A stretch of 64,000 bases of DNA from Chiloscyllium plagiosum (taxonomy: Eukaryota), in contig NC_057745.1 of assembly GCF_004010195.1 (NCBI RefSeq), positions 20,270,943 through 20,334,942 on the forward strand. The letters run 5' to 3'. Both the position numbers and the translations under genes were made by a program. Shown here in pieces: positions 1,111 to 45,800 of the stretch. The first letter of the stretch is position 1. The number at the start of each line of letters is the position of its first letter. The notes below the pieces were generated by a model. That model was not told the DNA's origin. It did not search any database and saw only the letters and a program-made list of their open reading frames with translations.

Positions 1111-1222
1111 TGAGTCACTGGACTCAAAACGTTAACTTTGTTTCTTTCTCCATTGATGCTGCCAGACATGCTGAGTTTCTCCAGCACTTTGTGTTTTTCT
1201 GTTTCAAATCTCCAAGCATACA
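1111..1222 (+). repeat. Degenerate Penelope pLTR fragment (a similar copy lies at ~28999-29115)
   Basis: GAGTC-ACTG-GACTC-AAAACGTT followed by GATGCTGCCAGACATGCTGAGTTTCTCCAGCA; CUGANGA box lost. Confidence 0.6.
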
Positions 1223-1379
1223 CAAATGTTTGTTTTAGCTACATCGCTGAATATTAGTTTGAATTAATTTTCATCAGAAACCATATTGAATCCATAAAAG
1301 TGGCAGTGACTCCCTAAAAACTCTTCATAAAAGTCTTGAACTGAGTGAAGAATCTGGAATCTCAGGTTCAATGTGTGGA

Positions 1380-1489
1380 GGGTATCCATGGAAACTGTCA
1401 CTCATTGATCCGGAAGTAAAGCCAATGTCACCCGGAAGGACCAGTGAGCGGGACGCGCGTCGCTTAGCAACGGGCTGCTGTCCGTAAAG
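1380..1489 (+). promoter_or_regulatory. DNAAF4 proximal promoter with two RFX X-boxes, ETS sites and a CCAAT box
   Basis: GTATCCATGGAAAC at 1382-1395 and GTCGCTTAGCAAC at 1459-1471 are X-box-like. CCGGAAGT at 1410-1417, CCAAT at 1422-1426 and CCGGAAG at 1432-1438. Local CpG enrichment. Confidence 0.75.
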
Positions 1490-1612
1490 ATGCCGCTGCA
1501 GGTTAAGGGTTACACTTGGGACCAGGTGGACAGCCAAGTGTTTATAACGGTGCCGCTGAAGGGAGTGAGGGCTGGGAAAGCGGACATTTTCTGTACCGAG
1601 GATTATTTAAAG
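1490..1612 (+). CDS. DNAAF4: DNAAF4 coding exon 1 (123 nt)
   Basis: ATG at 1490; [41 protein letters not shown]; donor AAG|gtgagg. Confidence 0.95.
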
Positions 1613-41652: not shown

Positions 41653-41954
41653 GGGTGGCACAGTGGTTAGCACTGCTGCCTCACAGCGCCAGAGACCTGG
41701 GTTCAATTCAGGCGACTCTCTGTGTGGAGTTTGCACATTCTCCCCGTGTCTGCATGGGTTTCCTCCGGGTGCTCCGGTTTCCTCCCACGGTCCAAAAATG
41801 TGCAGGTTGGTGAATTGGCCATGCTAAATTGCCCATAGTGTTAGGTGAAGGGGTAAATGTAGGGGAATGGGTCTGGGTGGGTTACGCTACGGTGGGTCAG
41901 TGTGGACTTGTTGGGCCGAAGGGCCTGTTTCCACACTGTAAGTAATCTAATCTA
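41653..41954 (+). mobile_element. HE1-type SINE
   Basis: Same sequence family as 556-836. Confidence 0.9.
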
Positions 41955-42772
41955 TTACACAATTGAAAAACTTTCTGAAATATTAGGCAAATCTGGGTTT
42001 TATGAATGGGGTAGGATGCAAGGAGGGTGGGTAAATAAGTTGGGTAAACATTGTCTGAGTCTGCATCTTGGGTATGACATTTAGTCTATGAAAGAAAATC
42101 AAATTAAAAAGAGTTTGCCCTTGATTGGCTTGAGGAGCAAAATAACCCATTCCTGTTCCTTTTTTGTATGTTTGTGATTAAAATAACTCCACGCCTAGTT
42201 GTCTTTCAGGTTTAAGTTCAAGTTCACATTGGTAGCTGCTAGAACACTCCGAGTTTTAGATTGGCTTGTACATGCAGTCTAAAGGTGTCGTCACAGGGAT
42301 AAATTTAACATCTATATATAAATATAATATTGTTGAAAGCCCCAATTTTATTTTAAGTTTGAACTGTGCTGTGCAGCTGTTCTTGTGAACAGTGACCTTG
42401 CCATCTAGATAAGGTGCAGGGAGGAAAGATGGGTCACATGATTACTCAAACAAAAACAAGCTGTTCTTACTATATACTGTGTGGTGTACTATTAATCCAA
42501 AGTTTTGTTTTTAAAATTGGCATAAATTTTAATTATTTCCTAGTTTTAATTAAACAGAATAGAAAGCTTTTCCTTTGGCATATACGTGTTGGCTTTTTGA
42601 GTGCCATTTAAGTTTAAAGAGTGTTGTTTGGGTTCCAGAAACATTTGTTTACATGTGTTATTAATAACAGACCAAACAAAATGATTGTGGTGTGGAAAAG
42701 TATTGGACTTAAACTTTGATTTTCTTTTGCTAATTTTGGTATTGTTTGTTTTGCAGTTACCTTGGCATAAAG

Positions 42773-42832
42773 ATGTCAGAGAGTTCCAGCGATAGTGAAT
42801 CATCCTGTGGTTGGACCATAATTAACCATGAA
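42773..42832 (+). CDS. CCPG1: CCPG1 first coding exon (exon starts 42757)
   Basis: ttttgcag|[24 protein letters not shown] containing the LIR W-T-I-I; donor GAA|gtatat. Confidence 0.92.
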
Positions 42833-45800
42833 GTATATTATACTTTTCTTATTCCATTTCTTAAGCCCTGTGATATATTATAATTGTAGTTTATCTGTGC
42901 ACTGAAGAATTGAGTTATTAAAAATTGAGATGTAAGAACTAGTTATGCAATAACTTGTGAATTTTTTTTTAAAAAGAAGGCAAGATTTTGCTTTGCATAC
43001 TCTGTTACAGAATCATGTTCCAGGTATTTTATAAGTGTTTATGACTTTGGTGCACATAAGGGAAATTCCCCATCCCTCACTATTCTTTCGCATTGGATTA
43101 TATAGACTATTGCACAATGTCTATATTTGCATAGTTTTCTTTGGAATTGGTCACTTAATTAACAATCTTGCCACTATTTTATTTTCTTCCCAAGTGACTA
43201 GAAAAATATATTTGTGCATACCTATGATGTAGTATTTCATATATATTGTGAAAGTCCTAACTATGTTCTACTTGGAGTACAGAATTTGTCTAGATTGATG
43301 TCACAAATGCAAGATCTTCACAATTATTTAAAAATAAATCCCTCATTGAAAAGATCTATAAAGAGCTTCTGATTAAAATATATCATTAACATATGAGAGA
43401 AAGTCCGTCGTATTTTTAAGAGATAAAGTAGTTGTAATGAGAAAAATTGGATATTGTGTATTAAATCTTTATTGAACAAGCTATTTAAAGTAACACTGCA
43501 AACTTGTTATTTTTAAATGTCGTTCATCTATCCTGGATGTTTACTGTTGCTGGGTGATTGTCATTGACAGAAACTGATCTTGACTAGCTGGTCACATATT
43601 GTTGTGACAACAGCAGGTCAGAGGCTAGGAAGTTTAATGAGAGTAAACCCCAAAGTCTCTCCATCATCTACAAGGCAGAAGTCAAAAGGATGATGGAATG
43701 CTCTCCACTACCTAGATGAGTACATTTCCAACAACACTCAAGCTAGAAATCATCCAGGAAGTCCACTACTTTGATTATTCACTCCCTTTACCACTGATGC
43801 AAAGTTGCAGCAGTGGGTAATTTCTAAAAAGGTGCACTGCAGTAACTCCTCAAGGATCCTTTGACAGCACTGTCCAAACCTTTGACTTCTGCAATTAGAA
43901 GGACAAGGGCAGTACATACATGGGGCCCAAACCAACTTCGACTTCCGTTGTAAACCATACACCTGACTTGGAAGTATATTGCCATTCCTTCACAGTTGCT
44001 AGGTCATAATCTCAGAACTTACTTTAGTGCTATTTTGGGTGTTCCTACACCTCAAGGACAACAGCAGTTCGAGAAGATAGCTTAAATTTACCTTCTCTGA
44101 GGCAATTACAGATAAGCAATAAGTACTGGCCTAGCCAGTGATGTCCACATTGTGTGAAAGAATGTTATTTTTCAAAATGAAATAGACCCATCATATACAG
44201 AATTAGGGCATAATGGTTTCTGTTCACTATTAGGAGAAAGTGAGGACTGCAGATGCTGGAGATCAGAGCTGAAAATGTGTTGCTGGAACGTTTCGGGCAT
44301 GAGCCCCTTCTTCAGGAAGAAGGGCTCATGCCCGAAACGTCGATTCTCCTGCTCCTTGGATGCTGCCTGACCTGCTGCGCTTTTCCAGCAACACATTTTC
44401 AGCTCTGTTCACTATTATGTTTGTTGTAACTGTCTGGTATAGTAGAAACATCACAAGATGAAATGATATGTGATTACATGCTGTATGTTTCAATGTGCAA
44501 GTATACATAAATGTCTTTTTTTTTTAAAGATTCTGAAACAGCAGTGAAAATAAATCAGAATAATACTGAGTATATTTTGGGAGATGTTATTTCTAGCTAA
44601 AGTTATTGTTCTTTGATTGTCTGCCTTGATGATGGAGAAATTTGCCATAGAAAGTGTGTCTTTCTGTCCTTCCTAACCTGAGTGAAAATTATTTGGTATT
44701 TTAACTGGAAAATATAGATAAGCATATGGAGTGGTATTAAATTAATCTGGCAATACTACCTTTGAGTTGATTTCTTATTTTGGTATCAGATTAATAAATT
44801 ATGCTGATTTGCATTATTTATTGATGCTCTTATCTTAAAGTCCCTCTTGGGACAGAACTAAAGTTTGGTTTTCTGGAAGAAACGGTATCTGAGGTCAATC
44901 TCAACCACAAAGCTGGTGGTAATGACTTGTTTTCGAAACTTTCCAGACAAGTGATCATCTTTTTATATTCAAAATACTTGCTCCTTTTTTTTTGCTGTTA
45001 ACTTCCATTCCTAAGTGGAACCCTGGAATTAAAGCTGAAATAACTGCTCTTTACATTATTTTGCACTTTACATGAAAAAATACTGTTCTACGAACCGTGG
45101 AGCTTTAATCCAGTATATCACTGCAATTTTCATATACAGTATTATCTAAAAGTTTTGATCAATCCAAATGTGAAATTTCTCTAACAATATACTAATTGCA
45201 TTGTGGCCAGAAATATTGTAGTAATATGATACTATTCTTTTTAAGACCCTCTTTTTCTAATTGATGTTATGCAATATACATATTGAAATCATCCAACCTT
45301 TAATGTACATTCGGTCCTGTTAAAAATTGTGGAAACCTTTCTCATTTCATTGTAACAGGATATTTTGCATCACAAAAGATGTAGTTTATAATGTGGATAA
45401 AATGTTATTAATTTTCATAATAAATATCAAGAAGAGGCACTCAATCCACTAGAGTGCCTTTAAAGATGGATCTGTTAGTAATTATTAATATCTTTATAGT
45501 TGTTTTCACCTTAGTGTCCATATATTGTTAGTGTACTGGTAAATAGTCTCTCCACCCCTTTTGTTTGAGCACATATTCCCTATTTTTCTTAATGAATTGT
45601 TGAAAGTGACCTCATATAAACGCATTAGTTAAATGTGTTTTCACTGTCTTACTTCGTGCCAGGTTAACTTTCTGTGAAACAAATCCATACATACTTAATT
45701 GAAGGTTAGTTGCTTTCTGAAGGGAATTTCCATTGCAGCCCAGCTGTCAGTTGAAACATGAATTTATTTTGGGAAATGTTGGTATAAATGGTGCGTTTGA

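Follow-up and report, generated by a model that had tools for sequence, protein, structure and literature searches.

Minimal type-I hammerhead ribozymes residing in the pseudo-LTRs of metazoan Penelope-like elements were described in 2014 (Cervera and De la Pena 2014, PMC4209133), and the role of the hammerhead in these elements has been stated to be unclear (PMC8557442). The sections of the 2014 paper considered here hold no shark data and no link to transcription start; its supplement may list shark families. The motifs that we analyzed in a 64-kb shark window, meaning the whole stretch of 64,000 nucleotides, are of this class. They share with the described ribozymes the type-I order, the lack of a helix III loop, the palindromic 15.2-16.2, the extra base between 9 and 10.1 and G10.1-C11.1, as well as the presence of many families per genome, mostly as single or opposite-strand copies. 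The top vertebrate counts in those sections are about 4,000 and 9,000, obtained with another descriptor on smaller assemblies, compared with 105,924 intact cores in the shark genome (exact patterns; 0 in controls).

Neptune/Nematis-type elements (Craig et al. 2021, PMC8557442) resemble the shark elements in their C-terminal GIY-YIG, their C-x2-5-C-x2-C linker, their tandem and inverted 5'-truncated copies, and their optional 30-40 bp tail. For the anole Poseidon element PAc, an internal start of reverse transcriptase (RT), an uncut RNA substrate and cleavage needing the element's protein were reported (PMC11167929); the shark copies appear to share its two internal RT starts, matching the tail, and its uncut RNA template. 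Its layout, with the ATG at the start of helix II, appears to match that of shark lineage D, whereas in lineages A and B the start codon is found >100 nt beyond the ribozyme, with the junctions piling up at helix I. Transcription of Drosophila virilis Penelope likewise starts inside the pseudo-LTR (PMC2377424), but from a TATA-less internal promoter and with an intron between start and ribozyme, unlike the upstream TATA-like box and the start at the ribozyme that we infer for the shark elements. Non-LTR retrozymes, according to the parts of that report considered here (10.64898/2026.07.22.740005), also derive from Penelope-like elements, carry type-I hammerheads and are reported from one chondrichthyan; they form tandem arrays, whereas the shark copies are solo or inverted, with a direct partner within 600 nt for only 14 of 360. 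No tandem hammerhead array is present in the window.

A profile search yielded 17 pseudo-LTR fragments in the window, or 1 per 3.8 kb (0 in the reversed control), representing lineages A, B and C, and 14 of them span at least part of the ribozyme (Table 1). The initial annotation had reported about 12 copies carrying the motif. Hammerheads are indeed present, but the full core CUGANGA..GAAA.UH is found in only six copies (C3 at 1877-, 2238+, 11624+, 19783-, 21117+ and 44315-), and all three helices are retained as well in four (1877, 11624, 19783, 21117), the palindrome at 19783 containing a G.U. Three of the six helix II examples cited there lie in broken cores (34083, 1112 and 41299), and the one at 1112 lacks the CUGANGA ascribed to it. 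The GGGG before 21114 was considered as untemplated bases and rejected, being part of the inverted ORF-start piece.

Table 1 Pseudo-LTR copies and element fragments in the window (C3 positions and predicted cuts as window coordinates).
Position	Strand	Lineage	Description
1112..1200	+	C	Fragment of the older GAGUC/GACUC subfamily, lacking CUGANGA and with G12 to A
1789..1886	-	C	Intact hammerhead, C3 1877; helix I AGUU/AACU, helix II GGGUC/GAUCC, ACGU; predicted cut after C 1848
1891..2099		B	Inverted pair without core, inserted directly upstream of C copy 1789..1886; 13-bp target duplication 1891-1903 / 2087-2099
2230..2327	+	B	Solo copy, start -8 after G; C3 2238 within intact core; broken palindrome (AGGU) and mismatched helix II
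11044..11698		B	Head-to-head pair, each arm with an upstream TATAAA; C3 11624 and predicted cut after A 11652 in intact + arm; 3-nt core deletion in - arm; pair predicted to fold at -395 kcal/mol
19482..19580	+	A (A2)	C3 lost at junction
19653..19787	-	A (A3)	Start -4; core intact, C3 19783; palindrome AUGU
20888..21220		A	Inverted insertion, 14-bp target duplication 20888-20901 / 21207-21220; - arm without core, 20904-21002; first 110 nt of element ORF at 21003-21113 (-); intact + arm 21114-21206 with C3 21117, cut predicted after C 21144
29002..29086	+	C	Decayed
34011..34700	-	A	Element 3' end (left bound, profile match; right bound approximate); broken GIY-YIG coding (LLYIGET, C-x2-C, AEHF, GTLQP), then 3' UTR, then hammerhead; C3 34102, helix II GAGC/GCUC, G12 to A
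41157..41387		B	Head-to-head pair, 12-bp target duplication 41157-41168 / 41376-41387; G8 to A in + arm; core of - arm truncated at junction
44219..44417		A	Head-to-head pair, 14-bp target duplication 44219-44232 / 44404-44417; - arm with C3 44315 and intact core, 3' strand of helix I lost by deletion; CU of core missing from + arm

Genome-wide, we found at least five lineages, in all of which CUGANGA, GAAA and UH form the column majority. The annotated palindromes ACGU and AGCU and the triplets GUC (A) and CUA (B) were confirmed, but the "at least two families" of the initial annotation need extending; copies 1112 and 1856 fall in a third one, lineage C, with GUU as its usual triplet. Helix III is loopless and palindromic across lineages, its inner pair being kept in 13 lineage representatives (C-G in 9, G-C in 3, U-G in 1). 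The claimed covariation of the helices, helix I included, holds between lineages: across these representatives, which were hand-picked and are related, and which came from a scan that did not demand helix I or the inner helix III, pairing is kept at 104 of 117 positions, compared with 65 for shuffles and 23-43 for slid sequences. Pairs were counted with the core as anchor, since MAFFT misaligned the B rows. The individual helix II changes cited as covariation fared unequally. GAGC/GCUC (2x2 table 94/1/4/7, p=1e-7) and GAGUC/GACUC (24/11/1/14, p=5e-5; random sample) are true subfamily changes, whereas GGGUC/GAUCC (1856) and GGAGU/ACUCU (11632) look like post-insertion decay, with a 2x2 table of 27/13/1/2 (p=0.28) for B pair 5. 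Decay had also been considered for GAGUC/GACUC (84/10/4/2, p=0.15 in the first 100 intact C copies), but the random sample overturned this reading.

Between A and B, 2 of 4 helix III pairs are formed, in line with the claim that the two do not cross-pair. The palindrome as sole source of specificity did not stand: ACGU is common to four of the five lineages, so that specificity would be set by helix I and not by the palindrome alone. The double-hammerhead fold was never predicted as the lowest-energy state and was marginal (-6 to +6 kcal/mol). The 8 Rfam matches at E up to 1 were chance hairpins and included no hammerhead; this is expected, because the Rfam hammerhead models require helix III. 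A search with a loose descriptor gave 18 matches in 390,593 random bases, compared with 0, 1, 0, 0 and 0 in Markov controls and 0 in reversed sequence.

The suggested Penelope-like origin was borne out by the parent elements. At locus L071, two direct ribozymes 2.5 kb apart flank the RT ORF (RVT_1) of a lineage B parent, with the ATG at +121, and the order in each parent is ribozyme, ~95-nt tail, ORF (RT, Cys linker, GIY-YIG), 3' UTR, ribozyme and tail. For lineage A, no complete element was found in one piece; ribozymes of A, C and D were found downstream of GIY-YIG stretches, as for the window copy at 34102. Same-strand pairs of A cores on C1 were rejected as full elements, with an RT ORF in none of L091-L093, and long open frames turned out to be N runs or simple repeats. 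A linker C-x4-C-x2-C precedes the nuclease in A (PCNRKKCKTC) and B (PCHGGRCKTC), whose nuclease motifs are YIGET, C-x2/4-C and EHF (CCHH-type). A Pfam search of the A and B nuclease pieces gave no match, and PF01541 is present in relatives of B. Assigned from the linker alone, the parents of A and B are RT-GIY-YIG elements of putative Neptune type. Lineages D and E may be of the Poseidon type, the nuclease pieces of D reading KIPCKDC..YIGQT..EAW without the Cys linker.

The new observation concerns the 5' junctions of the copies, which cluster at the start of helix I, follow an extra G and lie ~30 nt downstream of a TATA or TATA-like box. In random DNA, 97 of 183 A copies and 30 of 71 B copies have their junction at -15..+4 relative to C3, with peaks at -4 (A) and -8 (B). 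For 105 unselected young A copies, 57 of the 102 scorable ones end at -1..-9 (mode -4, 14 copies) and 2 at -10..-19. Of the 14 ending at -4, 10 have a G before the junction, whereas the count for neighbouring junctions is 12 of 41 (p=0.01). Counted by eye in the first 100 copies of each lineage, a G stands before the junction in 65 for A (of 9,882 copies) and in 82 for B (of 1,052 copies), against a background of 26%. Inverted arms can account for 28 of the 65 in A, and 37 of 58 are left once all explained rows are removed; in eight solo copies with target duplication, the G lay inside the target sequence in 4 and was extra in 2. Target preference could contribute to the excess. In full-length L1 insertions, an extra G is a mark of the cap (PMC11702581). 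TATAAA lies 30-32 nt upstream in 37 of the 40 B copies having it and 29 nt upstream in 3 of 4 C copies; lineage A lacks the canonical TATAAA, and TTTATY/CTTATC is found 31-33 nt upstream in 80 of 83 copies. A reading of helix I as a splice acceptor (for B, TTCCACAG) was rejected, the flanks being diverse and with target duplications. Lineage D shows no junction pile-up at the ribozyme, and given this lineage the layout is not general.

We consider it probable that transcription starts at the ribozyme and that the short copies, most of the genomic ones, arose by reverse transcription of RNA that was capped and uncleaved; the element RNA likely begins right at the ribozyme and was likely reverse transcribed uncut. 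RNA polymerase II would start at an initiator ~30 nt downstream of the TATA or TATA-like box, namely at the opening base of helix I (A, C) or 5 nt ahead of it (B). RT would start inside the RNA, 85-125 nt past C3, as suggested by two peaks of 3' ends in the 105 young A copies (45 at +80-99, 45 at +110-129) and by the biochemistry of anole Poseidon. A start in the 5' repeat would yield 95-135-nt copies ending at the cap, a start in the downstream repeat longer copies, and a second round or fold-back the head-to-head pairs with 9-16-bp target duplications. Cut RNA appears to have seldom been the template, as junctions at the cleavage site are ~20-fold rarer than at the helix I start (982 matches, ~1/3 of them true, vs about 9,000 at -4). 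These tens of thousands of dated junctions are a natural experiment that lends support from a living genome to the uncut RNA template found in vitro; the model accounts for genomes filling with solo and inverted ribozyme motifs and gives exact predicted starts (-4, -8) and cut sites.

In full-length RNA, the two ribozymes are predicted to pair via the palindrome and both helices I, probably aided by the element's protein, and to cleave after the GUC or CUA triplet; this would strip off the capped leader and free unit-length RNA. Cleavage only in homodimers, as expected by the initial annotation, is one published mode; the other depends on the element's protein, as in anole Poseidon (PMC11167929). 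It is conceivable, if doubtful, that promoter and ribozyme form a single module in Neptune-type elements, with the 5' strand of helix I as initiator and the hammerhead as a self-decapping switch kept lineage-private by helix I and the palindrome; if true, such a switch would separate capped mRNA and linear template from uncapped unit-length RNA. An RNA run of a related organism showed no site where many molecules begin or end, from a fragmented single-cell library that cannot reveal starts or cleavage.

The fixed 5' end could instead reflect strong stopping of RT, or fold-back, at helix I, with the G appended by RT or selected by the nuclease. TTC..GAA near C3 could prime fold-back, many junctions are inverted and the G is often derived from the target, yet RT would reach the 3' strand of helix I (+28..+32) first and no pile-up occurs there. 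Moreover, the junction differs between A and B but the ~30 nt to the TATA-like box are constant, and neighbouring junctions show no G enrichment, rendering this reading improbable. Still less probable is a circle produced by dimer cleavage as the main template, a model put forward in the sections of PMC4209133 considered here. It fits the copies running through the ribozyme into the 3' UTR (43 of 102 scorable, extending at least 18 nt or scored as doing so), and long copies are equally compatible with a circular template. However, a circle has no end at -4, whereas over half of the copies stop there, and cleavage is dispensable in vitro for the anole element (PMC11167929); the circle can account for the longer copies only.

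A very large ribozyme load had been suggested for this genome. The copy number is very high, about 320,000 copies retaining core and palindrome (extrapolated from 89 in 986,095 random bases), but a working load did not hold up: 164 of 253 copies spanning the core are broken, with G12 altered in 14-32% of copies in lineages A, B and C and both G12 and the palindrome sitting in fast-decaying CpG, and 314 of 360 copies have no nearest partner on the same strand. Because most copies are broken, solo or inverted, motif number does not equal a load of working ribozymes. That host RNAs are cleaved by homodimers formed from many of the dispersed copies, A and B being separate systems, is the least probable reading, as the retained copies, the inability of A and B to pair, the 46 of 360 copies with a same-strand nearest neighbour within 3.5 kb and the presence of copies from both strands in polyA RNA of a related organism are set against this decay, the weak cleavage of published minimal dimers (PMC4209133, same sections) and the cutting of only 1 of 9 Xenopus dimers in the parts considered of 10.64898/2026.07.22.740005. 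Host effects of the motifs are unlikely. Head-to-head arrangement was found for 176 of 360 copies, and such pairs are predicted to fold into hairpins of -95 to -395 kcal/mol; with about half of the copies in inverted pairs of this kind, the dispersed copies are mostly inert DNA.

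A literal pattern scan of the window returned five family cores and one chance match. Profiles made from natural copies delineated 17 fragments of pseudo-LTRs of Penelope-like elements (PLEs) from three hammerhead lineages, and none in the reversed window. The entire catalytic core is kept in six of these fragments and all helices as well in four, so that the initial annotation's figure of about 12 motif-bearing copies is too high. Several window insertions are head-to-head pairs flanked by 12–14-bp target duplications. The predicted cut lies after +27 in lineage A and after +28 in B, with C3 of the core as 0.

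In the 3.56-Gb genome, exact patterns recovered intact cores of lineages A to E (see table). A random sample of 102 arbitrarily placed 10-kb stretches (986,095 bases) held 360 fragments, 253 covering the core; 89 of these kept core and palindrome, 26 had lost the palindrome and 138 were broken. This extrapolates to ~320,000 (258,000–395,000) intact copies and 1.3 million fragments, figures that may leave out less common or older lineages, since intact cores served as seeds for the profiles. The closest same-lineage partner within 3.5 kb was head-to-head for 176 of the 360, on the same strand for 46 and tail-to-tail for 31, with none for 107. The hammerheads are real and of a known kind, their class, palindrome, inverted repeats and tail all being published; the proposed very large ribozyme load stands as a striking copy number, of copies that are mostly inert.

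The helices covary as the initial annotation had proposed: across 13 hand-picked lineage representatives, selected on helix II and core with helix I and inner helix III left free, 104 of 117 cells are paired, compared with 65 in shuffles (0/5,000 reach 104) and 23–43 in slid alignments. Helix II pair 2 shows a joint G-C to A-U switch within A and within C (further count, 15/100 versus 3/99); every such within-lineage switch is a single historical event that transposition has multiplied. Outside CpG, divergence is lower in the core than in the tail columns (A, 0.03 versus a median of 0.07; C, 0.09 versus 0.17; B, 0.046 versus 0.06), and G12, within a CpG, decays fast. The pattern is one of conservation among the source lineages and of decay among the copies. 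In lineage B helix II, CpG decay in both hairpin arms (GGAGC.GUC.GCUCC to GGAGU.GUC.ACUCC) mimics compensatory change, a pitfall for covariation tests on dead repeats.

A lineage B element is flanked by two ribozymes in direct orientation, 2.5 kb from each other; its ATG is 121 nt past C3. In both A and B, RT motifs come together with a C-x4-C-x2-C linker and GIY-YIG nuclease, and the two RTs share 31% identity. Among named proteins, those closest to the one encoded by B come from sharks, in support of the shark host given in the initial annotation; a C-x2-5-C-x2-C-type linker is reported as the hallmark of Neptune and Nematis (PMC8557442). A lineage C ribozyme lies downstream of an A-like nuclease in one locus. 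Lineage D carries a Poseidon-like nuclease, and its ATG lies where helix II begins, as described for PAc, the Poseidon of green anole (PMC11167929). PLE expansion has been reported in whale shark introns (10.1101/443036). Short fusions of the A ORF start can be read as internally deleted derivatives or template jumps; their fusion points fall in the region where the anole protein binds.

Copies frequently end at the ribozyme itself, with 5′ ends at −15 to +4 in 97/183 A and 30/71 B copies. Subfamily divergence was controlled by recovering the copies around the first 100 intact cores of lineage A along one contig, 105 in all; among the 102 scorable, 57 end at −1 to −9 (mode −4) and two at −10 to −19, and the others run on. 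Three copies end at N. The base preceding the A junction is G in 10/14 at −4 versus 12/41 at −1 to −7. Across the genome, a non-template base stands at −5 in 9,882 A copies; among the first 100 of them it was scored by eye as G in 65, and once 42 attributable to inverted arms, duplications or long copies are set aside, 37 G, 14 A and 7 T remain (p = 2e-9). For B, where 1,052 copies were counted, the base at −9 was scored by eye as G in 82 of the first 100, of which ~30 could stem from an arm. Copies long enough to hold it carry a TATAAA or TATA-like box 29–33 nt upstream of the junction, and TCATTC (A) and TCAGTT (C) fit the initiator consensus. In full-length L1 insertions, an extra G is reported to reflect the cap (PMC11702581).

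A purine at +27, the cut site, occurs in 982 copies. By eye, about one in three among the first 100 is a true junction; the corrected ~470 against ~9,000 at −4 gives only an approximate ratio because the two search patterns differ. Lineage D showed no junction pile-up at the ribozyme in 25 loci. The 3′ ends form two peaks and represent the PLE tail. A recurrent junction joins an inverted arm ending at −1 to ATTC at +29, likely a jump between the two ATTC words flanking the core.

Beside the observed element layout, copy counts, junction positions, G excess and box spacing we place a model in which a capped RNA would start at −4 or −8 and reverse transcription would begin inside it; two ribozymes are predicted to pair in cis with protein help, cleavage removing the leader. 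We found no report of a transcription start at helix I (literature on shark or promoter links; subscription journals and Repbase lay outside the scope). The promoter-at-ribozyme layout together with the lack of cut-site junctions is the part worth testing. On either strand, RNA reads of a related organism rose ~tenfold in depth at the ribozyme; their flanks at −4 were unlike one another, and neither starts nor ends piled up; they are host transcripts carrying copies and say nothing on cleavage.

Each helix I of a double hammerhead joins one copy to the other. The suggestion that A and B do not cross-pair was borne out, with only 2/4 helix III pairs between them. ACGU is common to A, C, D and E; both helix I junctions are complete only within one lineage, and D–E pairing is partial. 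The energy model renders the double-hammerhead fold marginal and never minimum-energy; for inverted insertions the folding energies are −95 to −395 kcal/mol. Minimal hammerhead dimers reportedly cut weakly (PMC4209133), and one of nine Xenopus dimers cut (10.64898/2026.07.22.740005).

Several ribozyme copies sit inside introns of the CS/TPR gene in the window; none is an intact same-strand pair.

Intact cores genome-wide (exact patterns; reversed control 0) and located features; L-numbers are genome stretches outside the window
Feature	Location	Strand	Remark
Intact cores, lineage A			85,944
Intact cores, lineage B			15,212
Intact cores, lineages D, E			4,457
Intact cores, lineage C			311
First 30–170 nt of A ORF fused directly to 3′ UTR or ribozyme	L272:9215, L266:1731, L295:599, L113:7473, L119:1093, L030:151		
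Two intact same-strand B ribozymes 355 nt apart, third inverted	L072:3341-4034		candidate natural dimer
CS + TPR domain exons	window 1448-1747, 7960-8313, 15592-16011, 16453-16550	+	which we take to be DNAAF4/DYX1C1
PIERCE1/2-family ORF (PF14892)	window 35704-36582	-	long acidic N-terminal stretch, loose repeats, ends in CDD
Abundant repeats, presumably SINE and CR1/L2-type	window 572-837, 41654-41954, 58309-58606, others		
Long nested inverted pair, presumably CR1-like	window 2646-6504		
Decayed LTR-retrotransposon RNase H-like piece; L1-like ORF1, ORF2 pieces	window 19868-20236, 30355-31041, 50498-54294	-	assigned by eye
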